Shown here: positions 1 through 40,747 of the stretch, one piece after another
Layout: each line of letters begins with the position of its first letter
Position numbering within the stretch: the first letter of the stretch is position 1
Virus record (IMG/VR): IMGVR_UViG_3300037722_000283
Coordinates: 1 to 40,747 of that record
Source: a virus
Lineage: Duplodnaviria; Caudoviricetes
DNA length: 40,747 nt
Reading direction: 5' to 3' (one strand)
Notes under the pieces: generated by a model
Database searches by the model: none
What the model saw: only the letters and a program-made list of their open reading frames with translations
Told to the model about the DNA's origin: nothing
Program-made: the position numbers and the translations under genes

Positions 1-127
1 GCCCGAGTGCCCGTCTCGACTCCGCGTCCAACCCATCGGGCTCGTCTGCGATGAGGGTGCGGATGGCCGTGCCGGCGCGCCTCGCGATGAGGCGCGACAG
101 GCCCACCGCGATGGCCAGGTGCAGGCT
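1..127. repeat. Terminal direct repeat (circular assembly overlap), copy 1
   Basis: Identical to 40621-40747; the sbcC reading frame continues across the join. Confidence 0.97.
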
Positions 128-3393: not shown

Positions 3394-4529
3394 CAGGCAG
3401 CCACCTCAGCCAGCACAGCGCGCCCGCGGTCCACCAGCGCCTCGCGGTCTGGGTCGTCCGCGAAATGGGCCTCCAGCGCCTGCTCCGCGGTAAGCGACTC
3501 GGAGAGGCCGCCCGCGGCCACCGGCGCATCCACGCGGGCATGCCGGACCTCGACCACGTCCCAGGCACCCGCGAGCTCCATGGCGAGGACGACCTCGTCC
3601 GTGGACGCCTCGGCCGGCACGTTGACAGCGCGCACGATGGCGTCCTCGACGGCCGGCAGGTCGATCGCGACGCCCTCGGCGTAGTCCACGGTCACGAACC
3701 GGCGCGCCGGCGTCTCGATGAACTCGAAGGCACCCGGGTCTGCCGTGTCCACGACCACGTAGCCCTTGGGGTCGTGCTCCTCGCCCCAGTCCACGCGGTG
3801 CGGGCTGCCGGCGTAGGCGACCAGCGGGTCCCGGCCGAGCACCTGGTGGCGGTGGAAATGCCCGGCGAGGATGGCGTCGAAGCCGATGGCCACCAGGGCC
3901 GCCGTGTCGACCACGAGGCTCATGTCCCCGAGGAAGGCCTGTTGCGTCTCGCTCATCTGGCCGCCGGCGAGGCCCTGGTGGATGACCAGCATGATCGCCT
4001 CGGGCTTCGTGTGCCCGGCGATCGCTTGGGCGTAGAGGCCCCGCGCGATCGCCAGGAACTGCTCGCCGAGCACGCGGAAGATGTCCGCGTCGGGAACCGA
4101 CTCGAAGCCGGGCTGTGCGCGAAGCCAGTGTCGGTCCAGGTAGGGCATGGCACAGACGGCGGTCAGGCCGATCCAGGCGATGCCGGGGCGTGAGAAGCCG
4201 CGCCAGCCGAGCCTGCCGGCAGCGAGCACGTCGGCGATCGAGTGACCAGCACGCAGGCCGTCGTGGTTGCCGCGGGTGATGATCGTCGGGCCGCCGAACG
4301 CAGCCAGGGCGTCCGCGATCATGGCCACGCGCCACGGGCTCGGGTGGCGCTCCTCGGTCAGGTCGCCGGCGACGATGAGCGCGTCGCAGCCGCGGGCCTT
4401 CGCGTCCTCGGCGATCCAGCGGATGATGCCCACCGCGTCGACGAACCGCGCGTTGAGGCCAGTCGCTGCGTCGATGCGCTGCCCGTAGTCGCTCACGTGC
4501 AGATCCGCAGTGACGGCCAGGCGCGTCAT
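3393..4529 (-). CDS. sbcD: SbcD/Mre11 metallophosphoesterase nuclease
   Basis: Motifs DLH, AGD, GNHD, IHQ, GHFH and YAGSP; ATGA-coupled start at 4529. Confidence 0.93.
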   Translation of the reverse strand: MTRLAVTADLHVSDYGQRIDAATGLNARFVDAVGIIRWIAEDAKARGCDALIVAGDLTEERHPSPWRVAMIADALAAFGGPTIITRGNHDGLRAGHSIADVLAAGRLGWRGFSRPGIAWIGLTAVCAMPYLDRHWLRAQPGFESVPDADIFRVLGEQFLAIARGLYAQAIAGHTKPEAIMLVIHQGLAGGQMSETQQAFLGDMSLVVDTAALVAIGFDAILAGHFHRHQVLGRDPLVAYAGSPHRVDWGEEHDPKGYVVVDTADPGAFEFIETPARRFVTVDYAEGVAIDLPAVEDAIVRAVNVPAEASTDEVVLAMELAGAWDVVEVRHARVDAPVAAGGLSESLTAEQALEAHFADDPDREALVDRGRAVLAEVAA

Positions 4530-5668
4530 GCCGCGTTCTCGGCTGCCTCGAGGTCCGCTGCCAGCTGGCGCCACTCCGCGCGCAGCTGGTCGTGCCCGAT
4601 GGCGGTCCCGACCTCGAGGATCGCTTGGGCATGCCTGCGCTCGATCGCAGCCAGTTGGCCCAGATCGAAGAGCGCGTCGAGCACGGTGCCGACCTCGCCA
4701 GCGCTGATGCCCCGCAGTGCTTCCTGGAGCTGGCTGCGCTGCTCCTTCGTGGCTGGCTGCGTCGCAGCAGCGTTGGCCTCGGCCACGGCGCGCAAGCGGT
4801 CAGCCAGGCCTCCCAGCGGGCCTTCACCGAACCAGTCCGGCTCGTCGCTCGTTGGCTGCTCGGCCACGATCTCGCCGGTCGCACTGTCCACCGTGGCATG
4901 GCCGTTGGTCTGCACCTGGACGTACTCGGCCTCGGCCTCGTCGTCCGGGGCCTCGGGTGCCTCGATGGCACCGGCGTCGATGCGCTGGGGCTCCGGGCCA
5001 TAGGCGGCCACCGACGCCGGCAGCAGGTTGTCGAGCATCCGCCGGCGCACGTCCGGGTCAGACATGTTGGGCACCCAGCGCAGGATCGCGAACGGCCGCG
5101 CGAACCGCTCCTTCGGCATCGAGCCGTGCAGACTGAGCAGCGAGCGGATGGCCCGGTTGAGCGCCTTCGTCTGTGCGTTGGCCAGCAGGTGCTCGCGCGC
5201 CTTCGAGAGCCTGGCCTCCGACCACGGCTTGCCGTTGCGGTCCTTCTGCTGGCTGAGCTGGTGCAGGTCGATCGCCTTGCTGCCATGGGCACGGATGCGC
5301 TGACCCGAAGGCAGCGCCATCTCGATGGCTACGGTCCACTCGATCACGTCGGGGTCGCTGCGGTCATCGGTCCGTTGGCTCGAGAGCTCGTCGATGCCGG
5401 CCACCTGTCGGATCCTCGACAGGCCCTTGGCGGTCGGGGCGTAGTGGCCATCCTTCATCTGCGAGTCGTGGTAGATCTCGCCATCCGCCTCGATCATCGA
5501 GAGCTTCACGGTCTCGATGTCCGGCACGAGGTATGGGTTGACCTGGCGGATGGTCTGCGTGGGCACGAGCAGGTTGAACTGCGCCTCTGGATAGTCCTCG
5601 AGCACCGCGATGGTCTGCGGCTCCCACTTCACGAGGGCGCTCTCGTCCTTGGGTTCCTGCGTCGTCAT
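4526..5668 (-). CDS. Putative recombination / single-strand annealing protein
   Basis: Globular N-terminus with AQTKALNRAIR helix, acidic disordered linker, small C-terminal domain; AAGGAG RBS; directly upstream of sbcD. Function inferred from position and architecture. Confidence 0.5.
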   Translation of the reverse strand: MTTQEPKDESALVKWEPQTIAVLEDYPEAQFNLLVPTQTIRQVNPYLVPDIETVKLSMIEADGEIYHDSQMKDGHYAPTAKGLSRIRQVAGIDELSSQRTDDRSDPDVIEWTVAIEMALPSGQRIRAHGSKAIDLHQLSQQKDRNGKPWSEARLSKAREHLLANAQTKALNRAIRSLLSLHGSMPKERFARPFAILRWVPNMSDPDVRRRMLDNLLPASVAAYGPEPQRIDAGAIEAPEAPDDEAEAEYVQVQTNGHATVDSATGEIVAEQPTSDEPDWFGEGPLGGLADRLRAVAEANAAATQPATKEQRSQLQEALRGISAGEVGTVLDALFDLGQLAAIERRHAQAILEVGTAIGHDQLRAEWRQLAADLEAAENAA

Positions 5669-22559: not shown

Positions 22560-23750
22560 TTAGGCGACTGCGGTGATCTTGACGGCACGCACCATCTGCA
22601 CGCCGCCGTCCTGACGGACCGTGCCGGCGGTGATGTCGGTCGAGAAGTCGATGCCCGCACCCCCCGCCGTCGCGCTCACCCGGAACGTGTTGGTCGCCAG
22701 CGATGTCGCGATGACGAAGTAGCGCTGGCCCACCGTGAGCCCGGTGCCGCCGGTCAGAGCAGTGAACACGACTTCGTCGCCGGCGACGAAACCGTGCGCG
22801 GTGGCGTCGATGATGTCATCGCTCGCGGCGCTGGTGAGGAGCGTCACCGGGGTTCCGAGGTCGGCATCCGAAGGCGTCCACACGCCGTTGGCGTCGAAGT
22901 AGCCCTCGTCCGTGACCGCTGCGACGCCGAGCCAGCTGTCGAAGATGGTCCGGTCCTCGACCGTATCAAGGTCGAAGCCGCGCACCACGCGCATAGCGAA
23001 CCCGCCAGCCGACTTCATGACGCCATAGGCAGCGCCGGCGGGCACGGCGGGGGCCTTGTTGGACATGGCGAAGGCCGTCTTGTGGTAGGCGATGGCCTCG
23101 TCAGGCGCCAGCTCTGGCGCGGTGATGATCGTGAAGCCGCCCTTGCGCCCGATGGTGGCCTCAGCCAGGGCCGTACCGCCATCACCTGACTCGTTCGCCT
23201 TGACGAACAGGTCAGTGGAGAGGAGTGCCGTCTCGATCGAGGCACCGACCGCGAGGTAGCGGTTGCTCGGGGGGACGTGCGCCTTGTTCAGATACTCGCG
23301 GGCAGCGAGGATGATGTCCGGCCACGCAGCACCAGAGGAGTAGTCGAACACGATGGAGTTCGCATAGGTGGCATCCGACATGGCGGTCGCCAGTTGCGAG
23401 TTGATCTCCTCGACGATGCCCGCGGTGATGGGTGCCAGCACCTGCATCCCGAAGTCCACGATGTCGAGGTTCATCTGCTCGTCGGTGATACCGACATCCT
23501 TGTAGACGTCCGTGTCGAGCGTCAGATCGATCTTGCGTTCGTTCAGCGTGTCCTTGGTCCGCGCAGAGCCCGAGCGCAGGACGCGGGTCCGTGCGGGGGC
23601 ATACGCCGGCAGCCGGACGCTGATGGTGTCATCGAGGGCGCCCGCGAAGTCTCCGACGGGGTCTCGCCAAACCGTGGCCGCGAGCGTGCTCTCTCGTGTG
23701 AGGAGGCCGAGCCCGGCGCTCACGATGCGCTGCGCTGTGAGGAAAGCCAT
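22560..23750 (-). CDS. Major capsid protein (P22 gp5-like / actinophage type) with extra domain near the C-terminus
   Basis: DTISVRLPA, YLNKAHVP..NRYLAVG, IAYHKTAF; follows the scaffold gene. Confidence 0.9.
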   Translation of the reverse strand: MAFLTAQRIVSAGLGLLTRESTLAATVWRDPVGDFAGALDDTISVRLPAYAPARTRVLRSGSARTKDTLNERKIDLTLDTDVYKDVGITDEQMNLDIVDFGMQVLAPITAGIVEEINSQLATAMSDATYANSIVFDYSSGAAWPDIILAAREYLNKAHVPPSNRYLAVGASIETALLSTDLFVKANESGDGGTALAEATIGRKGGFTIITAPELAPDEAIAYHKTAFAMSNKAPAVPAGAAYGVMKSAGGFAMRVVRGFDLDTVEDRTIFDSWLGVAAVTDEGYFDANGVWTPSDADLGTPVTLLTSAASDDIIDATAHGFVAGDEVVFTALTGGTGLTVGQRYFVIATSLATNTFRVSATAGGAGIDFSTDITAGTVRQDGGVQMVRAVKITAVA

Positions 23751-23765
23751 GTGTCGCTCCTGTCG

Positions 23766-24284
23766 TTACCCCCGCGGGATCATCGCCGCGAGCTTGGTCG
23801 GGTCGTTCTCTTCAGGCTTCGCATCGGGCGCTGAGCCCGACCGCAAGACCTCTCGTGGCCGACCGTTTGACGTGTCGCCCGGCTTCGGCCCTGGCTTCAG
23901 TTCTGTGAGTAGCTCGTCCGCATCAGCCTCCAGCTCCTCCTGGGTCTCACCCTGCAGGCGTCCCGCCATCGCGAGGGAGAGTCCTTTCGCAGCTGCGATC
24001 TCCAGACGCATGAGGCGCCCTTCCGCCTTGGCGGCCCTAGCCTCGGCCAGCGCCTTCTGGTCATTCGCTTTTTGGAGTTCCGACTTGTCCGCGTCCTCAG
24101 CGGCCTTCTGCCGGTCGGCGTTGGCCTTCGACTCCAGTCGGAGCTTGGCTGCCTCGGCGTTGGCTTTCTTGAGCGCGGCCTTCATGGCCTCGACATCGTC
24201 GGGAGCTTCAGGCGTCTCGCCCTGCGAGCTATCAGGCGTCTCGCCCTGGTTCTGCTCGGGCGTCTCGCCCGCGGTATCGGCCAT
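23766..24284 (-). CDS. Capsid scaffolding protein
   Basis: ALKKANAEAAKLR...RLQGETQEELEADADEL; GGAGG RBS. Confidence 0.9.
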   Translation of the reverse strand: MADTAGETPEQNQGETPDSSQGETPEAPDDVEAMKAALKKANAEAAKLRLESKANADRQKAAEDADKSELQKANDQKALAEARAAKAEGRLMRLEIAAAKGLSLAMAGRLQGETQEELEADADELLTELKPGPKPGDTSNGRPREVLRSGSAPDAKPEENDPTKLAAMIPRG

Positions 24285-24313
24285 CTCGACCTCCTGTCAA
24301 TCATGGGCGGGCA

Positions 24314-25651
24314 TCACGCCACGCCACTAGTGCCTTGTTGGTCACCTATCAGGACCGCCGGGCGTGCGCGGACGGCCGACTTGATGCGGTCCACGTCCTG
24401 CTGGTCCATGTCGGGCACGCGCTCGATCGCCTCTTCGAGAGGCATACCGACCTGGACGAGCTTCACGAGCGCATCGACGGTCGCCGCGAGGCTGCGTGCC
24501 GATGTGTCGCGCCAGCGCACCTGCGCGTCGTCAGGGACCGACTGTCCAGCGAGCCTTGCCGCCAATGCGAGCGTCTGTTCGTGCGCCTCACCGAGCGTCA
24601 CTTGGCGGTCGGCCACCTTGCGATCGCGCCCTGATTCGGCAGCCGCGAGCGCCTCGGCCGACAGGTTGACCATCTCGCCGATCAGTTCGTGCGTCGGCGT
24701 CTGGCTGAGACTGGCCATCTGGCGGATGGTGCCCTCGCGGGAGTCGAGGTAGCCGTCGAGCTTCGTGGCCTCGAGGTCGCCTACCTTGACGTCCTCGGGG
24801 CCGTCCTCGAACGTCATGAGAGTCGAGCTGCCCATCTTGACCCGCGCCTGCTCGTCAGGCGCGAGCCATCCGAGGATGTATCGCTGGCGGTGCGCCGCGA
24901 AGTGCTGTGCCACGAGCAGGTTGAACGTGATGAGGTTGACCTGGTCCTGCAGCGTCATCAGCGGGGCGACCTGGCCGATGACCTGTCGGCCAAGGTATCG
25001 CGACGCTCCGTCGCTCTCGTCGGTCGGTTCGTCGTCCCAGTCGGGGTCCTGGACCTCGAGGTAGCGCACGATGGGCGTGACCTCTGCGCCGTGCTCGCTC
25101 GTGGCCACGTGCCTGAACGTACCCGACTCATCGAACGTCAGCCGGTAGACAGCGGACTCGTCGTACAGCCGCCATGGGCCACCGGGCACGCGTTCGAGCG
25201 CATACGTCGGCCAGTCCGACGCGCCATCGTAGAGCGTGGTGAGCTTCCGGGGCCCGACGCCACGGATGACCGGCACCGGCTCGCCCGGCGTGACGACGGC
25301 GTACGCCACGCCGTAGGCGACCGCGGCACGGTGGATGATCGACTGGCGCGCGTCGAGCTTGTTGGCCTGCCAGATGTCCCATGCGCTCGCATCTACCGGG
25401 TCGGTGCCGGCGCGGTAGCCCACGACCGAGAGGCTCTGCGACAGGCTCTCGACGACCAAGTCGATCATGTTGACGCGGGCGAGCCGGGCGAGGATGCGCA
25501 CCTCTGCGGATGCGGTGGAGGGGATGACCGCCGGGAATCTCTGGCAGTCCTTCCAGAAGCGCCTCACCTCATCGAGACGGCCCTTCTCAGCGTCGGTCTG
25601 TTCGTGGAGCTGGCGCGCCTGCGTCTCGGCCTGCTCGGGGGTAAGCGTCAT
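24314..25651 (-). CDS. Portal protein (SPP1 gp6-like)
   Basis: WDIWQANKLDARQ..IHR, NLSAEALAAAE, VRWRDT motifs. Confidence 0.92.
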   Translation of the reverse strand: MTLTPEQAETQARQLHEQTDAEKGRLDEVRRFWKDCQRFPAVIPSTASAEVRILARLARVNMIDLVVESLSQSLSVVGYRAGTDPVDASAWDIWQANKLDARQSIIHRAAVAYGVAYAVVTPGEPVPVIRGVGPRKLTTLYDGASDWPTYALERVPGGPWRLYDESAVYRLTFDESGTFRHVATSEHGAEVTPIVRYLEVQDPDWDDEPTDESDGASRYLGRQVIGQVAPLMTLQDQVNLITFNLLVAQHFAAHRQRYILGWLAPDEQARVKMGSSTLMTFEDGPEDVKVGDLEATKLDGYLDSREGTIRQMASLSQTPTHELIGEMVNLSAEALAAAESGRDRKVADRQVTLGEAHEQTLALAARLAGQSVPDDAQVRWRDTSARSLAATVDALVKLVQVGMPLEEAIERVPDMDQQDVDRIKSAVRARPAVLIGDQQGTSGVA

Positions 25652-25705
25652 CGGTCATATCGCAACGCATCACAGGCGCGGGTGATAGTGCCGACTTGGT
25701 CACCC

Positions 25706-27346
25706 TCAGTACGTGGCAGCCCCGCTGCCGGCACGCGGCTTTTCTACCGTCATCGCCCAATGCACGGCCAGCATCGCTGCCTGGGCCGCCACGATCGGCT
25801 CACCGGTGCCCGACTCGATGGCCCAGCCACGCGGTTTCTGCTTTGCCATGAGCCTGCCCATCTGGACGACGAGCTCCGGATCACCATCGTGGGTCAAAAT
25901 GCCCGAGGTGACAGCCTGCATGAGTGTCTCGGCGGCCGGTGTCAGCCGCTCCTGCGACGATGGGACGCCCATCGTCACCATGCCGGCGCGCTCGAGGCGC
26001 TGCCGGGATGGCTCGAAAAAGGCTTCGTGATGCAGCAGCAGCGGACCATGGCGGCGACGCTTCGTGGGCTTGCCACCCGGGCGCTTCTGGACCATGGCGA
26101 GGACGTGGGCCCGGTAGATGTGATGCTCTTCGATGTACGTCTCGATGCTCTCGGCGTCGACGTACTCACCCTCTGACACCTCAGCGGCCCACGAGCGCAG
26201 GATGACGCGCTCCCCCTGGCGCTGAGCCACCGCGACAGCGGCCGCGCGGTGATGATGGCCGACCCGGACGCAGATATAAACCGGCTCGTCCGTGACGAGA
26301 GCAGCGTCACCCGTGCATGCCGCCCAGAGGTCGTCCGGCATCCACGCCTCCTCGTTCTCGGCGCCGCGCACGTTGAACTTCTCGCGCAGCACCTTGCCCC
26401 ACGGCACGACGCCCTGGCCGTCATCGGCAAGCGACAGGCTATCGACCTGGCGGTCGAGCTTGTCCAGCATCCAGGGCACATCGCGATACACCTCGGCGAG
26501 GGCAACGCGCTTGCGCTCGACAGACCAATCCTCGTGCGGTTCCTCTGACGGGCGGGTCGCGAACATGAGCACGCGAGGTCCCGACTTGCCCCATGTCTCA
26601 GCGACCGAGCCATGATCGATGACCGGCGCATTGGCAAGGAAGTGGCCCCATCCACCGGTCTTGTCAAGGTTGAACATCACCGTCGCGGCGAGTTCGGGAC
26701 CGCCGTTCTCAGGCAACCACCCCTGGACCTCGTCGAGCACGGCATGGACCAGAGGCGCGCCGGTGCGTGACGCTGCCGACGCCGTAGCTCGACCCATCTC
26801 AGCCCCCGGGATATCGCGACGTCTGAGCATCGTCCGGCCTGGGCGACCGGAATCTACGGTGAGGATATGTGCAAGCGGGCCCCGGGCGCCACCGGAGAGG
26901 ATCATGACCATCTGCCACACGTTGAACGTGTTGGCCTCACTGACCGATACGACCTGCACGTAGGGTGTGAGCGTGCCCGGGCTGCCCCACGGGATACCGA
27001 CCGGCTGGCCATCGGCGTCCCAGCCGTCGAAGAGGACGGGCGCGCCGCCGAACTCCCCGAGGGCCAGCATCGCAGCCAGCGGTCCCTTGCCCCAGCCCTT
27101 GGCTTCCTCCTGGTGGACACGGTCATAAAGGCGACGACCGCTCACCGGATCAATCTCGTAGATACGAAGGACTCGACGTGCCTGCGTATCGGTCAGGACG
27201 AGCGGGAGGGTAGGGTCGCTGGGATCCGGCAGGCTTGCAGATGTCCATTCGAGGATCTCCCACCCGAGCGAGCAGATGTCCCAGGGACCACGCGGGCGCC
27301 AGCCTGTGCTACGAGCGGACCGGCGGGCTGGAGCGGTGACGGTCAC
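25706..27346 (-). CDS. terL: Terminase large subunit (ATPase intact, nuclease apparently degenerate)
   Basis: LTDTQ Q-motif, Walker A AKGWGKG, Walker B AVLDE, HDGDP motif; directly upstream of portal. Confidence 0.9.
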   Translation of the reverse strand: MTVTAPARRSARSTGWRPRGPWDICSLGWEILEWTSASLPDPSDPTLPLVLTDTQARRVLRIYEIDPVSGRRLYDRVHQEEAKGWGKGPLAAMLALGEFGGAPVLFDGWDADGQPVGIPWGSPGTLTPYVQVVSVSEANTFNVWQMVMILSGGARGPLAHILTVDSGRPGRTMLRRRDIPGAEMGRATASAASRTGAPLVHAVLDEVQGWLPENGGPELAATVMFNLDKTGGWGHFLANAPVIDHGSVAETWGKSGPRVLMFATRPSEEPHEDWSVERKRVALAEVYRDVPWMLDKLDRQVDSLSLADDGQGVVPWGKVLREKFNVRGAENEEAWMPDDLWAACTGDAALVTDEPVYICVRVGHHHRAAAVAVAQRQGERVILRSWAAEVSEGEYVDAESIETYIEEHHIYRAHVLAMVQKRPGGKPTKRRRHGPLLLHHEAFFEPSRQRLERAGMVTMGVPSSQERLTPAAETLMQAVTSGILTHDGDPELVVQMGRLMAKQKPRGWAIESGTGEPIVAAQAAMLAVHWAMTVEKPRAGSGAATY

Positions 27347-27711
27347 TTGGCGACGCGACGATCACGTTCACGCTGACGACGTTCTCGTGCCCCGTGCTCA
27401 TCGAAGTCAGCGATGACCTCTCCGGGCCCGAGCAACACCCAGTCGTCCTCACTGTCGCCGAATACAACCATGCCCAAGTCACCGTCCCAATATGCCGGCA
27501 CCACGATGCGGTCACGGTCGGCTGCTCGAAGGTACTCGCCATCAGTGAACTCGACGGACCCATCGAGGCTCACCGGCGCGTGCTCCTGAATGACCCAGCC
27601 AGCCAGCGGGACGCTGTCGAGAAACAGGTCATCACCTCGCAGGAAGTAACAACACCAACCAGCGGCTGCTGGGCTGAACCCGATGCTGCGGTACTGCCAA
27701 GCTGCCCTCAC
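27343..27711 (-). CDS. Hypothetical protein between terS and terL
   Basis: GTGA overlaps with both terminase genes. Confidence 0.7.
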   Translation of the reverse strand: MRAAWQYRSIGFSPAAAGWCCYFLRGDDLFLDSVPLAGWVIQEHAPVSLDGSVEFTDGEYLRAADRDRIVVPAYWDGDLGMVVFGDSEDDWVLLGPGEVIADFDEHGARERRQRERDRRVAK

Positions 27712-28124
27712 GACACCACCCTCAAGTGCTCGTACGCCGAGCCTGCTGCCTCGCCCTCGCCCTCGTCGACGCCCTCGGGTGGCTTCCAGCGCCGGTCCTG
27801 CTGGCCCTTGCGCGTGATGCCCAGGTCATCCATGAGCAGGCGCAGCGGATTCAAGAGAGGGCCGGGCTTGGCCGCGGTGTCGGCCTTCGCCCACAGCTTG
27901 ATGACGAGCCGGAGGTTCGGCAGGTCTTCGGGTGTCCAGTTCGACGCGACCCATGACGCCATCCACGTGGCCCATGTGTCCCGCGCTGCCTGACTCCGGG
28001 CAGGGCACAGAGGCACCTCGCCGTGCTGCCAACCGATGCCAGGAGCGGTCTGCCACTCGCCGCGCTGCGGGACATCGGACTTGTTGACCCGGTCGTCCTT
28101 CGACGCCGGCCCTCTACCAGCCAT
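27708..28124 (-). CDS. terS: Terminase small subunit
   Basis: MAGRGPASK start, TWATW, LRLLMDDLGITRKGQQDRRW; actinophage-like TerS pattern. Confidence 0.8.
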   Translation of the reverse strand: MAGRGPASKDDRVNKSDVPQRGEWQTAPGIGWQHGEVPLCPARSQAARDTWATWMASWVASNWTPEDLPNLRLVIKLWAKADTAAKPGPLLNPLRLLMDDLGITRKGQQDRRWKPPEGVDEGEGEAAGSAYEHLRVVS

Positions 28125-28178
28125 CTGGTGAAACGTCCTGACTCCGAAGAGAGCCTGAAACGTGCCACGTCGGGGTGG

Positions 28179-28583
28179 TCAGGAAGGCGCAAAGGGGGTC
28201 ATCCCCCGGGTCTGGCGTCGGTCGTGGAGTGACTTGCGGCTGTTGCAGGACGTACAGAGCGCACGCAGGTTGGCCAACGTGTCGCCACCACCCGCGATGA
28301 GCGGCACGATGTGGTCGGCAGCGAACCGGCCGGCCGGGTGTGGCTGGCGCCGCCAACCCGGGCAGACATAACCGTGGCGCTTGATGTGGTCGACCACTAC
28401 TTGGCGTCTCATCCTGCGAGAGGCGCGGCTGTCGTAGGCCTTCGGCCTGCGCGTCGACGGCTTGAACTTCGCCCCGAAGCCCTGACCGACATGGACCTCG
28501 CAGAGTCGGGATGGGTCGGTCGTGGGGTTCATGCATGGTCGACCACTCTCATCCTTGCCACGGCAGACGACACTTCGTACCAC
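28179..28583 (-). CDS. HNH endonuclease (terminase-associated position)
   Basis: ADHIVPLIAGGGDTLANLRALCTSCNSRK; start uncertain. Confidence 0.88.
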   Translation of the reverse strand: MVRSVVCRGKDESGRPCMNPTTDPSRLCEVHVGQGFGAKFKPSTRRPKAYDSRASRRMRRQVVVDHIKRHGYVCPGWRRQPHPAGRFAADHIVPLIAGGGDTLANLRALCTSCNSRKSLHDRRQTRGMTPFAPS

Positions 28584-28584
28584 G

Positions 28585-28797
28585 TCATCCCATGCTCCGC
28601 TGTTCACGGTCAGCGGCCAGGAGCAGGCCCAGCTCATCATCGAACCCATTGGCATGTCGTGCCTTGTCGAGATGACGACGCACTCCATCCGGGCTGATGC
28701 CCAGCTGGTGAGCGATCTCCCGACGCCCGTAGCGACGTAGACGCAGCATCACGACACGCTGCTGGCGCGGGGTCAGGCGCAGCTGACCAGTCGCCAT
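28585..28797 (-). CDS. LuxR/sigma region 4-type HTH protein
   Basis: LTPRQQRVV...REIAHQLGISPDGVRRHL. Confidence 0.8.
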   Translation of the reverse strand: MATGQLRLTPRQQRVVMLRLRRYGRREIAHQLGISPDGVRRHLDKARHANGFDDELGLLLAADREQRSMG

Positions 28798-28799
28798 CG

Positions 28800-29015
28800 T
28801 CACTCGGGCACCGCCACTTGGGCGAGCCAGCGATGGTCGCAGAGGGCATCCACCACTAGCCACTTCTGGAGGAACTCGTCCTCGCGCTGCCGCAGGTAGC
28901 TGCCCTCTGGTCCGGGATAACGTGACGCTTCCGCAGCCGCATCACGGAGCATCGCCATCGCTTCACGACACGCCGGCGAGTGCTCAGTGATGTCCTCGAG
29001 ATGCTTGCGGCTCAC
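28800..29015 (-). CDS. Hypothetical protein (71 aa)
   Basis: GTGA-coupled start. Confidence 0.55.
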   Translation of the reverse strand: MSRKHLEDITEHSPACREAMAMLRDAAAEASRYPGPEGSYLRQREDEFLQKWLVVDALCDHRWLAQVAVPE

Positions 29016-29224
29016 GTGGGCACCGTCACGATGACACTGCGGCCATCGGTCAGGACCTCCAATGCTGGGATATGGGTGGGGTGATATGAGCGGGTTTCCT
29101 TGCCCGAGCCGACGAGGACCGCCGACTCGGCGTCGATCAGCTCGCCGCACTCGTGGCAGCGATAGCGGACCTCGCCGAACAGGCGGATCTCCGGTTCGGG
29201 CAGCTTCCAGGCGGGGGCGGTCAA
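29012..29224 (-). CDS. Hypothetical CxxC/HxxH protein
   Basis: RCHECG...YHPTH; TTG start after AAGGA. Confidence 0.55.
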   Translation of the reverse strand: MTAPAWKLPEPEIRLFGEVRYRCHECGELIDAESAVLVGSGKETRSYHPTHIPALEVLTDGRSVIVTVPT

Positions 29225-29226
29225 TG

Positions 29227-29616
29227 TCAGTCCTTCGGCACTGGCTGGCTGGGATCGCGCGTCATGAGGGCAGGCCCGGTCTGCGGACCCCAGGCACGGA
29301 GGATGGAGCCGATGGTCTCGGCCACGTACAGGCCGGCGGCTGCGACACCGACGGCGGTGAGGGCGGGCACGTCGACCACGGGCACGAGCCACTGGTCGGC
29401 GAAGTGGCCCACGAAGAGCAGTATCCAGATGGGCACGATGCGACCGGCTACGTGTTTACGCAGGAATGCCGCGACCGAGTCGAGGGTGAAGGTGCCGTCC
29501 CTGATGGCTGCCGATACCGAGAGGACGAAGTCCACCACGGGCAGCAGCACCACCCACAGCGCCAGTTGCCCTGCCTGCGATGAGAAGAACGCATCCAGCG
29601 TCACGCGGAAATCCAT
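29227..29616 (-). CDS. Holin-like membrane protein
   Basis: About three hydrophobic segments; AAGGAG RBS; lysis region. Confidence 0.7.
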   Translation of the reverse strand: MDFRVTLDAFFSSQAGQLALWVVLLPVVDFVLSVSAAIRDGTFTLDSVAAFLRKHVAGRIVPIWILLFVGHFADQWLVPVVDVPALTAVGVAAAGLYVAETIGSILRAWGPQTGPALMTRDPSQPVPKD

Positions 29617-29698
29617 CAGTCATGTCTCCTTGTCTGTCTGCTGCCCCGACGCCATCACTGACGCCGGGGCATGGGCCGCCGAGGCCCTCCCGCCAGGT

Positions 29699-29941
29699 CT
29701 ATGCCCGAGGGCGTGCCCTGGTGGGGCGTTTGATGAGATACCAGCGACGGCTGCGGCGGCGCTCCTGCTCGCGGTGGCGGTCGGCATAGCGCCTGCTCGC
29801 ATCGCGCTGGCACTGGGCACAACGGGTCCATCGGCCTGCCACGTACGTGCCGACCATGGAGCGTGGGTGGCCGTTGATGCACAGCGCGCCGTGGACCGAC
29901 ACGTCGTGCGGCGACCAGTTGCAAGTGGTGCAGCGGACCAT
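29699..29941 (-). CDS. Small zinc-binding protein
   Basis: CINGH...RCAQCQRDASRRY, a motif often attached to HNH proteins. Confidence 0.6.
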   Translation of the reverse strand: MVRCTTCNWSPHDVSVHGALCINGHPRSMVGTYVAGRWTRCAQCQRDASRRYADRHREQERRRSRRWYLIKRPTRARPRA

Positions 29942-29942
29942 G

Positions 29943-30170
29943 TCATCCGGTCGTCTCCTCGTCGGCCATCCCGGATTCGCGCTCGGACTCCACCGAATGG
30001 ACCAGCGAGAGGTGCTTCTCCTGGGCTCGCTGACGGGCCAGGTCCGCGACCTCGGCGTCGTTGCGGCCGGTGACGTGGGTGATGTCGGGCTGGCACCAGC
30101 AATCGACCGAGAGGACGTGCTGGCGCTCGCCGACGGCGGCCGGGCGGGTGAAGGCGTGTGCGTTGGTCAT
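29943..30170 (-). CDS. Hypothetical protein (H..DCWCQP motif)
   Basis: AGGAG RBS; ATGA overlap. Confidence 0.65.
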   Translation of the reverse strand: MTNAHAFTRPAAVGERQHVLSVDCWCQPDITHVTGRNDAEVADLARQRAQEKHLSLVHSVESERESGMADEETTG

Positions 30171-31033
30171 GGTGCTGCTCCTGTGCGTTGCTCTTCATGC
30201 CACTCGATGGACTTGACGTGGGCTGACTCGTGCGCTGCTGCACGGGCGTTGGCAACGAGTTCGGTGCAGTCGCCGGGGGTGCCGCCCTCCAGCTCTTCGA
30301 TGCGGCGCTTGAGGCGCGCGACCGCGGCCAGGGCTGGCTTCAGCGCGGCCTCGGCCTCGTTGCGGTCGTCACGCAGGTTCCCGATGCGGGCGTGCAGCTT
30401 CTGCTCGAGCAGCGCCCCCTGGGTCCATGCGCCGATGGGCACTGTCCAGGCGAGCACCTGGCCGCCGTTGATGGCCTTGGCCGCCTTGCGCAGGTCGCTG
30501 ATCGGAGCGCGGTGGCCACGGTAGGTGCGTGAATGCTTGCGCATCGGGCCCATGACCCAGAACGCCGCCCCGGCCGGGCCCCAGATGACCACCTGGTGGT
30601 CCGCATCGGTGAGGTCGATCGAGTTGCGTGTGCCGAAGATGCTGAGGCGGACGGCGATGCTGATCACCTCGTCGGCCTTCGCGTGGTCCATCACGAGATC
30701 CCAGTCGCGCGTGACCAGCTGCTCGACCTTGGGCACGTCGTGCATGGCACGTTGGATCCGCACGTAGTCGTTCGTGTCGGGGATGCCGTTCTCGTCGGGC
30801 AGGCGCTTGAAGGCCTTCCAGCCGCGCTCGAGCTCGGCCTTGATGATCGCGAGGCCCTTCGCCTTGCCGTCGGGGCGGATCGTGGTCTCGCCGAGGCTGG
30901 CGATCGCCGACTGGTGCCACGCCGAGGACACCCCGCAACCGAGCAGTGACGGCGGGTTGTTCGGGCGTGGCTTCTTGCCCAGGACCCACTCGGATGCGAG
31001 AGGCGGGCGGTAGGCGTCGACGGTGGCGCTCAT
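30167..31033 (-). CDS. Putative endolysin: papain-fold (C39-like) peptidase plus coiled coil
   Basis: LGCG (Cys), ADHQVVI (His), WVMGP; lies among holin-like genes. Confidence 0.5.
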   Translation of the reverse strand: MSATVDAYRPPLASEWVLGKKPRPNNPPSLLGCGVSSAWHQSAIASLGETTIRPDGKAKGLAIIKAELERGWKAFKRLPDENGIPDTNDYVRIQRAMHDVPKVEQLVTRDWDLVMDHAKADEVISIAVRLSIFGTRNSIDLTDADHQVVIWGPAGAAFWVMGPMRKHSRTYRGHRAPISDLRKAAKAINGGQVLAWTVPIGAWTQGALLEQKLHARIGNLRDDRNEAEAALKPALAAVARLKRRIEELEGGTPGDCTELVANARAAAHESAHVKSIEWHEEQRTGAAP

Positions 31034-32308: not shown

Positions 32309-33451
32309 CTAGCCCAGCCCTTCGTCGAGCGTGTCCATGGCCTTGCGCCTGGAGTCCTGACTGACGTGGGCGTAGGTGCGAGCCGTGATCGAGGGTGAGC
32401 TGTGGCCAAGGATGTCAGCGATATCGCGCATCGGAACGCCCTGCTGATGCAGCAACGTCGCTGTGCCGTGCCTGAGCTTGTGGGGCGTGATCCGTGGTAG
32501 ACCTGCGTTCGTCATGAGCTTCGGGAACGCGTGCGAGGCCACACCGACCGTCAGGCGCTTGTAGGTGCGCTCGCCCATGAAGACGGGCTCAGCGGCGCCG
32601 TAGCGCGGCGTGGTGACCTTGTGGCGCTGCAGGGCAGCGACGACGAATGCGGGCAGCGGGATCGTGCGGCTCGCGGCTTTCGTCTTGCCCTTGCGGACCG
32701 TGACGGAGCCCTGCCGGCCACTTGTCGGATCGCCAAGTACCACGTCTCGCCAGTCCAGCGCACACGCCTCCCCGAGCCGCAGCCCGGTGCCCAGCAGGAG
32801 CGTCCACAGCGCAGCGAGCCGGTCGGGTGGGTGCTCCGGCGTGCCATCGCCCTGCACCGCTCGCAGGATGGCCTGTGCCATCGCTGGGGTCATCGCCTCC
32901 ACCGGGGGCCGGTCGACGCGCGGCAGCTCCACCATGGCCACGTTGGTCGTGAGGTCGCCATCCGAGACAGCCTGGCCGAGCGCGTTGCGCAGCGTGGCCA
33001 CGATGTGCCCCACGGTGGCCGCCGAGAGGCCGGCCCGCAGGCGATCGTCGATGAGCCTGCGCACGTCGCGCTGGTGGAGCGCGCCCACCCTGATGCCGCC
33101 GAGCAGTGGCCCGATGTGCTTGTCGATGTGGTGTCGGTACAGCGTGACGCTCGACGGTGCCAGGGTGCTCGAGGCCCCCTGCAGCCACTCCTCGAGGTAG
33201 GCATCGAGACCCATCAGCGCCACGTCCCCGCCGCGGCCGTACTGGCGCTGGAGGCGCGACAGCAGCGACTCGGCATCGTGGCGGTCGCCGCCCTTGCGGG
33301 CCGTGGCCTTGACGGTGCGTCGCTTGCCCGTCTTCGGGTCGGTGCCGAGGCGCAAGACGGCGACCCAGCGGTCGGCCGTCGTGTCCTTGTAGGTCGTGCC
33401 TTCCCCGCGGCGGTGCCTGCGCGGCTTCCGCTTGGCGCCCTTCTGTGCCAC
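32309..33451 (-). CDS. int: Tyrosine integrase (380 aa)
   Basis: RRGEGT N-terminus; catalytic R (GLRLGE), K, HKLRH, LGH, Y; TAGACT-N7-GTG supports the 33451 start. Confidence 0.96.
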   Translation of the reverse strand: MAQKGAKRKPRRHRRGEGTTYKDTTADRWVAVLRLGTDPKTGKRRTVKATARKGGDRHDAESLLSRLQRQYGRGGDVALMGLDAYLEEWLQGASSTLAPSSVTLYRHHIDKHIGPLLGGIRVGALHQRDVRRLIDDRLRAGLSAATVGHIVATLRNALGQAVSDGDLTTNVAMVELPRVDRPPVEAMTPAMAQAILRAVQGDGTPEHPPDRLAALWTLLLGTGLRLGEACALDWRDVVLGDPTSGRQGSVTVRKGKTKAASRTIPLPAFVVAALQRHKVTTPRYGAAEPVFMGERTYKRLTVGVASHAFPKLMTNAGLPRITPHKLRHGTATLLHQQGVPMRDIADILGHSSPSITARTYAHVSQDSRRKAMDTLDEGLG

Positions 33452-33467
33452 GTCGCCGAGTCTAGCG

Positions 33468-33650
33468 TCATGCGACGCGATCGCGACCACGTCGATGGGC
33501 GATGTACGCCTCGACATCCGCGACGGTGTACCGCGGCAGGCGGCCGATGTAGGTCGGGCGAAGCTGCCGGGTCTTGGTCAGGTGGCGCACGGTGCGCTGC
33601 GACACCTTGAGCCACTGGGCGACCTCGGCAGGGGTGCGCAGCTCGGTCAC
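33468..33650 (-). CDS. xis: Excisionase (HTH_17-like)
   Basis: TPAEVAQWLKVSQRTV...IGRLPRY; adjacent to int. Confidence 0.85.
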   Translation of the reverse strand: MTELRTPAEVAQWLKVSQRTVRHLTKTRQLRPTYIGRLPRYTVADVEAYIAHRRGRDRVA

Positions 33651-33889
33651 AGGAGGCCCTCGGAGCGCAGGACATGGAGTCGCTCGCGGCTGTGCCGGTT
33701 GGCCTCGTCGGGGGTGAAGTAGGGAGCCGGCCCAGATTCCCGTCGCCGCTCATTCCGCTCATGGTACGTACTATCGAGCTGCGCGACATCCGGCTCCGGA
33801 GGCATGATACCAGTCGGCTGGGCGATCAGGCGCCAGCGCAGGGCAGCGAGAGCGGCGACGATGACGAGGGCGAGGGCGACGAGCTTCAT
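33647..33889 (-). CDS. Small membrane-anchored protein
   Basis: N-terminal hydrophobic helix. Confidence 0.6.
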   Translation of the reverse strand: MKLVALALVIVAALAALRWRLIAQPTGIMPPEPDVAQLDSTYHERNERRRESGPAPYFTPDEANRHSRERLHVLRSEGLL

Positions 33890-34293
33890 GGGGTGGCCCC
33901 AGCTTTCGTCAGCTGCCGGTCGCCGAGCAGCTCGTCTTGGAGCGCATGGAGGTCATCGGGGCGCACGACCCGAACGTCGGCGCCGACGGCGCGCCAGGCG
34001 TCGAGCCACTCGGCCTGGCCCGGGCGGTACCTGCCCTTTTCGCTCTTGAGCTCGAGGACGAGCAGCAGCTGGCGCCCGGGGTGCAGTGCCACGATGTCAG
34101 GCCAGCCACTCTGCCCGGAATGCGACACGGCGTACGTGCCCGAGGGCAGCGTCGCGTGCTGATCGTGATGCCAGAGCCAGCCTCCCCAGCCGAGCGCCTG
34201 CTCGACGCCGAGCTGCATGTCGCCTTCCTCGGTCGCTGCGTTGCGCGCTTCCCTGAGGTCGCGGGGCGGTCGGCGTCGGCGGCGCTGGCTCAT
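33886..34293 (-). CDS. VRR-NUC (PD-D/ExK) nuclease, putative junction resolvase
   Basis: GWPDIVAL...ELKSEKGR..PGQAEWL..VVRPDD. Confidence 0.9.
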   Translation of the reverse strand: MSQRRRRRPPRDLREARNAATEEGDMQLGVEQALGWGGWLWHHDQHATLPSGTYAVSHSGQSGWPDIVALHPGRQLLLVLELKSEKGRYRPGQAEWLDAWRAVGADVRVVRPDDLHALQDELLGDRQLTKAGATP

Positions 34294-40477: not shown

Positions 40478-40747
40478 TCATGCCACGAGCTCGACGTGTG
40501 AGCCGGCCCCATCGCGGCTCACTTGATAGACCGCGTCGCCGAATTCGGCGAGGTCCGGTGTGTGGGTGACGACGACGATCCGCTCCAGCTCGCCGTGGTG
40601 GCTGAGCACCTTGAGTGCCTGCCCGAGTGCCCGTCTCGACTCCGCGTCCAACCCATCGGGCTCGTCTGCGATGAGGGTGCGGATGGCCGTGCCGGCGCGC
40701 CTCGCGATGAGGCGCGACAGGCCCACCGCGATGGCCAGGTGCAGGCT
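40478..40747 (-). CDS. sbcC: SbcC/Rad50, 3' part
   Basis: Walker B / D-loop LIADEPDGLD and H-loop VVVTH; in frame with 1-2080 across the junction. Confidence 0.93.
   Translation of the reverse strand, partial: SLHLAIAVGLSRLIARRAGTAIRTLIADEPDGLDAESRRALGQALKVLSHHGELERIVVVTHTPDLAEFGDAVYQVSRDGAGSHVELVA
40621..40747. repeat. Terminal direct repeat, copy 2
   Basis: Identical to 1-127. Confidence 0.97.

Follow-up and report, generated by a model that had tools for sequence, protein, structure and literature searches.

Results

Organization of the packaging locus

The window, that is, the whole stretch of 40,747 nucleotides analysed here, forms a 40,620-bp circle whose ends are joined by a 127-nt repeat, and a SbcC-like open reading frame (ORF) of 762 codons runs through the circle junction. 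CheckV estimates a completeness of 62%, although the ends close. On the minus strand, the genes follow the order HNH, TerS, a 122-aa ORF, TerL, portal, scaffold and capsid genes, and then tail genes (Table 1), which is the TerS-TerL-portal order with one extra ORF between TerS and TerL. The HNH protein, which has the catalytic His (about H91), had been described as adjacent to TerL; instead, its gene adjoins TerS, and the 122-aa ORF separates TerS from TerL. The stop and start codons of this ORF overlap those neighbours. Family searches gave no match for it, no counterpart lies at the same place in the other loci read that encode a TerL with a dead nuclease domain (hereafter, dead loci), and the top score of 0.85 in an ESM Atlas search is a lead only. 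The window portal is approximately 25–29% identical to the portals of other dead loci.

Table 1. Positions of the features in the window
Feature	Position	Strand	Basis or remark
127-nt terminal repeat	1..127 = 40621-40747	.	closes the contig
SbcC-like gene	2-2146 plus 40481-40620		
SbcD-like gene	3396-4574		
Scaffold and major capsid genes	22560..24284	-	family matches
Portal protein	24314..25651	-	family matches
TerL, 546 aa: ATPase domain (~1-334) and RNase H/RuvC-fold domain without catalytic Asp	25706..27346	-	phrog_9, E 5e-28
V519	25790-25792	-	stands where HK97 has D471
H440	26027-26029	-	stands where HK97 has D388
Basic β-hairpin insertion, residues 414-433, predicted	26048..26107	-	also in some intact relatives
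R367	26246-26248	-	stands where HK97 has D308
R361	26264-26266	-	stands where HK97 has D302
Walker B, D205-E206	26729..26734	-	aligned motif
Walker A, K83-GWG-K87	27086..27100	-	aligned motif
122-aa acidic ORF between TerS and TerL, overlapping both	27343..27711	-	ORF list
TerS, 138 aa	27708..28124	-	PF25673, E 7e-5, below the cut-off; related loci have this family upstream of TerL
Candidate cos region	28150..28207	-	G5 run at 28207, TGAC at 28181-28178; weak for the window itself
HNH endonuclease, ~134 aa, gp74-like position	28179..28583	-	PF01844, E 6.5e-9; D-H, N and CxxC-N motifs intact
Integrase	32309-33517		family matches
VRR-NUC protein	33889-34293		family matches
HerA/DUF87 ATPase, 605 aa	37154-38968		Pfam

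Elsewhere, the window encodes a DnaC-like loader, and its HerA/DUF87, SbcD-like and SbcC-like genes make up a DNA end-processing set. The 605-aa protein matches a PHROG labelled terminase, but was rejected as such because Pfam assigns it to HerA/DUF87. TerL profiles match only the TerL ORF in the closed window. The integrase is the sole tyrosine recombinase found, and neither a telomere resolvase nor a protein-primed or family-B2 polymerase was detected in the window. One public contig is identical to the window over positions 24000-31000; it probably represents the source sample and is not independent. The window is a temperate phage, likely of the cos type.

TerL retains the ATPase motifs and a predicted nuclease fold

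The TerL ORF is uninterrupted. The N-terminal part is an ASCE ATPase with the Walker A, Walker B, Q and coupling motifs of tailed-phage terminases, and Q55 and N239 are present together with the residues listed in Table 1. Among these, Q55, K83, G84, G86, K87, E206 and N239 are invariant in all 43 aligned full-length proteins. The ATPase half is 30–38% identical to actinophage TerL (646 records). Full-length TerL was not recognised by Pfam or PDB sequence searches. A search of 50,697 phage records produced nothing for the nuclease half, and the domain is absent from the isolated phages there. A predicted model of the last 214 residues (pLDDT 94) shows an RNase H/RuvC fold; it matches terminase nucleases, with HK97 TerL as the best fold match (Z 19.6, rmsd 2.5 Å, 177 residues aligned). 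Both the intact ATPase motifs and the conserved nuclease scaffold named in the preliminary description are thus confirmed.

The canonical acidic residues are replaced

The catalytic residues of HK97 TerL are given as D302, D388 and D471 (PMC9410871), and the first motif has D308 as its second Asp. The acidic residues required for two-metal cleavage at this canonical site are absent from the window TerL. By sequence, the register of the first motif is ambiguous. A slide of four residues is seen in MAFFT and in hhalign with an actinophage-type template, and it puts H365's column on the catalytic Asp. This shifted register was overruled by three lines of evidence for R361. When the HK97 template row is used, hhalign places R361 on D302 and R367 on D308. 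The secondary structure in the model of an intact sister runs in step with that of the window, the offset staying at 23 all the way from the W helix to strand 3; H440 and V519 coincide with the invariant D409 and D503 of that sister. Moreover, the nearest intact family in the profile search reads GVDIGxxHDSSAV, YDPxFFERS and IDAA, against CVRIAHDHRSAAV, YHGxFFEGS and IVAA, without gaps. The earlier reading that R361, R367, H440 and V519 replace the expected Asp residues therefore holds. Since mutation of these residues is reported to abolish cleavage in other terminases (PMC13595956), the alignments support the view that TerL would be unable to use the canonical two-metal site.

A basic insertion had been noted in addition. 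The basic stretch at residues 421–433 is real, but it is part of a predicted β-hairpin that occurs in four-Asp relatives too: under a strict column rule, the hairpin is found in six of the 94 nearest other relatives, five of which are four-Asp proteins. The hairpin therefore predates the Asp loss.

The dead nuclease domain defines a clade under selection

The homologues numbered 128; 120 matches were listed and 117 were aligned, three longer than 700 aa being omitted. When sorted by the C-terminal domain, the aligned proteins comprise 58 of the window type (the window included) and 59 others, 58 of which retain the first Asp. No Asp or Glu stands at positions 361, 367, 440 and 519 in 51 of the 58 window-type proteins, while six have one such residue and one has two; Arg occupies position 361 in 46/58 and position 367 in 41/58. 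For comparison, 94 well-covered rows outside the clade were taken from the 150 matches listed by the profile search, and 85 of these nearest other relatives, among the matches listed, have DDDD at the four sites. A quick maximum-likelihood tree of 95 domains with a midpoint root was built after removal of 8 fragments or frameshifted rows and, by subsampling, of 34 low-ranking rows from the 129 eligible. All 35 dead-type rows in this tree form one group (SH-aLRT 100). In a simple counting method applied to pairs of at least 62% identity, dN/dS on the domain is 0.02–0.44 in eight of nine close pairs, and the ninth pair has no changes. Judged by these ratios, the nuclease domain is under purifying selection. 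Collectively, homologues with the same substitutions, proposed for search in the preliminary description, do exist, close relatives do not keep the Asp residues, and its interpretation as an evolved state instead of a defective isolate is borne out.

Named members of the clade come from Chloroflexota bins, one of them from Ca. Limnocylindrales. A second, independent loss of the catalytic Asp is nested among intact relatives (P0151, P0163, P0175, P0176 and also P0156; SH-aLRT 99). Dead-type TerL proteins of 880–920 aa occur in L011, P0043, P0124 and P0130; in the first two, an intein-like insert lies at Walker A. In L089, L093, L099, L100, L103 and L106, no portal lies within 5–8 kb downstream of the dead-type terL copy, and host-like genes follow some of them; in L093 and L100, a second copy of the last 227 nt of terL, 83% identical, lies approximately 4.9 kb downstream. 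These portal-less copies might be satellites equipped with a terminase of their own, or remnants, or a target for insertion. L101 is a frameshifted relative.

The dead domain is joined to several ATPase types

The dead domain is combined with at least three ATPase types, namely that of the window, which is related to actinophage TerL, an HK97-like PF03354 type (L001, L089, L090), and a third type (L005, L008, L012). Conversely, the ATPase type of the window is also paired with intact nucleases, and in L041-L043, L052, L072 and L080 its partner is a different nuclease family, one in which inspection by eye shows no first Asp. Across 13 loci, TerS and ATPase distances agree closely (Mantel r 0.79), whereas there is no such agreement between those of the ATPase and the dead domain (r -0.05). 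Similarly, the nearest relative of the window is L001 by the dead domain and L111 by the ATPase. From these comparisons, we infer that domains have been exchanged at the linker between the ATPase and nuclease halves. Recombination of the two halves bears on the prediction of packaging mode from TerL trees. The HK97-ATPase-type loci L001, L089, L090, L095 and L096 have a gene for a DNA methyltransferase placed between HNH/cos and TerS.

An HNH gene accompanies dead and intact terminases

HNH genes at the loci were detected with a profile and a loose pattern. All 14 distinct dead loci with at least 2.2 kb of upstream sequence have an upstream HNH gene, and the His and CxxC-N motifs are invariant among the HNH proteins of dead loci. 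A fifteenth HNH gene lies at the opposite, far contig end in G003, and none was found in the 1.85 kb of upstream sequence of L096. Across the loci read, HNH is the only nuclease gene found beside TerS. Two different HNH genes lie upstream of the terminase module in L010, L014, L024, L048 and L031. The closest isolated-phage matches of the window HNH are at the right end of the ST64B and SfV records.

The linkage between dead TerL and HNH, which the preliminary description had put forward for checking, is present but not specific, because 15 of 18 intact-TerL loci also carry an upstream HNH gene; there is no enrichment at dead over intact loci (14/14 vs 15/18). Moreover, the correlation of HNH distances with dead-domain distances is not significant (Mantel r 0.21, p 0.11), and HNH distances correlate weakly with those of TerS and the ATPase (r 0.24–0.25). 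Complex prediction for the dead domain, HNH and two Zn gave scores of 0.64, 0.00 and 0.02, which we counted neither for nor against.

Genome ends and the candidate cos site

Contig starts of the module family pile up just before TerS: 26 of 80 rows begin 450–600 nt before TerL, and many share one register, which matches the left end of phage GTE2. Ends beginning at TGAC, as in GTE2, were considered and dropped; the intact contig starts are fixed 13 nt before a GTGTACG-like motif. An end-signal matrix was built from 17 contig starts, a set that is not purely intact because the TerL of L052 appears to lack the first Asp, yet its start is in the cos register. For 9/10 intact control loci, the top-ranked site of this matrix lay in the HNH-TerL gap. 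Among the 18 dead loci scanned, clear rank-1 sites were obtained in L007 (29.6 bits), L034 (20.9) and L098 (11.0), which indicates that the precise-end signal has been retained in some phages with a dead TerL. The L098 site is 31 nt from the contig start, the first 25 nt of which resemble what we take to be a sequencing adapter. L003 and L013/L014 have weak sites where one would be expected, and L013 begins 18 nt before its site. The scan found no convincing site in the remaining dead loci, including the window, whose best value near the candidate is -4.7.

The pattern G5-N18-30-TGAC, which was composed after inspecting the sequences, is found at the end of HK97 and, for 6/14 dead loci, within the gap. 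The window match at 28207-28178 is one of two on that strand; the TGA of its TGAC is the HNH stop codon, and a further 9 nt at the candidate site are common to L014. The window likely keeps a precise-end signal, although it is displayed weakly, with only the upstream half of the cos signal recognisable, and the cut would be expected near 28168-28163. In L010, L011 and L111, HNH abuts TerS and leaves no room for a cos site between them. Just upstream of the TerS start, the 8-nt word TGAAACGT (plus strand) is present in two copies at 28126-28165; these copies are possible sites for TerS or a regulator.

Discussion

The window TerL lacks all four acidic residues, and therefore the neighbouring HNH likely cuts the genome ends instead. 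In the reading that we prefer, the HNH protein probably makes both cos nicks, and TerL would only pump and grip the DNA. We lean, with slightly less assurance, toward the broader proposal that this cos lineage splits cutting from pumping, such that an HNH protein of 130 aa makes both staggered nicks and the disarmed domain serves as an exchangeable motor part on at least three ATPase families together with their TerS. TerS would bind next to cos, and TerL and TerS would hold the DNA and position HNH. Two HNH nicking events approximately ten bases apart would then give 3′ sticky ends, at both initiation and termination. The dead domain may be retained as the part that anchors the motor to the portal and touches DNA, as the phi29 vestige does, and R361 and R367 may bind phosphates at the former metal positions.

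Of the original claim that TerL is only a motor and that HNH makes the ends, the loss of the canonical site and its evolved state stand, whereas the role of HNH is one that we infer and several observations count against it. HNH is equally common beside intact TerL and does not track the dead domain. Published packaging HNH proteins are described as cutting non-specifically on their own and are believed to nick just a single strand (PMC12967558). Furthermore, the matrix finds nothing in the window, the G5-TGAC pattern is post hoc, six dead copies with at least 5 kb downstream have no portal, and the CheckV completeness is 62%.

It is rather unlikely that another nuclease makes the ends, with HNH as an accessory. 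Candidates for this role would be the VRR-NUC protein, an SbcCD-like pair, a host enzyme, or the intact TerL of another phage; the window does encode VRR-NUC, SbcC- and SbcD-like and HerA-like proteins, and portal-less copies of the module exist. However, no second TerL was found in the closed window or in 5/5 partial relatives searched (34–75% complete), the terminase-PHROG match is the HerA/DUF87 protein, and HNH is the sole nuclease gene found beside TerS across the loci read. A remodelled His-based TerL site (H364, D/H365, H366, H440, E402), which would nick one strand while HNH nicks the other as proposed for HK97, appears improbable. By secondary structure, these residues lie in or near the old site, several are frequent in the clade (H364 in 49/58, D365 in 41/58, H366 in 51/58, E402 in 58/58), and the window also has E441. 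Nevertheless, intact relatives too have H366 and E402 as their most frequent residues (39/94 and 53/94), so that these two are ancestral; position 365 is His in the window and Gly or Arg in 15/58, His is found at 440 in just 30/58, E441 is replaced by Gly in nearly the whole clade, and most members have two Arg at the metal positions. The ancestral nature of the former pair and the variability of 365 and 440 make the His-based site less likely.

A mode without cutting, in which unit-length genomes are produced by way of hairpin ends or a terminal protein as in phi29, has a precedent in phi29 gp16, a published vestigial terminase nuclease (PMC7672431), but is quite improbable here: searches of the window found neither a telomere resolvase nor a family-B2 polymerase, the window does have TerS, integrase and HNH, the cos signal is retained in L007, L034 and L098, and the domain, unlike that of phi29, has lost no secondary-structure elements. 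Portal-less or frameshifted (L101) related copies might suggest a defective prophage or an assembly error, which we regard as very improbable and which is contradicted by the clade-wide absence of Asp; the state is common to 58 proteins and the domain is under purifying selection. The public contig shows no differences over the region, but it is not independent.

The reviews consulted assign cutting to TerL in all concatemer-packaging phages, with phi29-like phages as the exception (PMC13595956, PMC7672431). For HNH-assisted cos cleavage, the strand assignment is stated to be open, with either one strand each or both by TerL (PMC11331095), and the need for an extra nuclease in packaging is called obscure (PMC12967558). 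Our literature search, with most subscription journals outside its scope, found no cos phage or HNH phage whose TerL is disarmed by nature, only phi29-like examples; the accessible portions of PMC5052747 and PMC9611059 contain nothing on this subject. A natural lineage in which the TerL site is missing adds a third answer to the question of which protein cuts which strand, and its TerS, TerL and HNH constitute a three-protein system for a direct test. If the preferred reading is true, HNH, rather than TerL, can be the true cos nuclease.

Comparison with known packaging systems

As read from its genes, packaging in the window is of the HK97 type in layout and departs from it at the TerL active site. 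HK97 (TerS gp1, TerL gp2, PDB 6Z6D; HNH gp74) provides the best fold match and the same HNH-cos-TerS-TerL-portal order, and its record has a G-run and then TGAC upstream of the end, as in the candidate cos of the window. In HK97, gp74 and its His are reported to be required (PMC13595911), and TerL is believed to cleave either one strand or both (PMC11331095). Its nuclease domains are described as sitting under the portal and contacting DNA during translocation (PMC10359639). However, HK97 TerL retains D302, D388 and D471 (PMC9410871), all of which are replaced in the window, so a competent TerL stimulated by HNH is not what the window encodes. Similarly, the Skunavirus HrdP and staphylococcal phage packaging HNH proteins are encoded beside terminase genes and are essential for packaging, which resembles the layout of the window; in contrast, they are described as accessory to an active TerL (PMC12967558).

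The actinophage 3′ cos terminases (GTE2, Azira, and Arthrobacter and Mycobacterium phages) are the relatives of the ATPase half. The left-end signal of GTE2 is the same as that of the module family, whereas its TerL keeps the Asp residues; Azira, whose TerL is related to that of GTE2, has 3′ sticky ends (PMC10353413). Hairpin-ended phages differ from the window by their protelomerase. Like the window TerL, phi29 gp16 has lost the catalytic residues and kept an RNase H-type domain, and DNA binding has been shown for this vestigial domain (PMC7672431). In contrast, the phi29 domain is trimmed to approximately 120 aa, whereas that of the window is of full size, and phi29 encapsidates a genome of unit length capped by terminal protein, with a protein-primed family-B polymerase and no TerS, whereas the window has TerS, HNH and an integrase.
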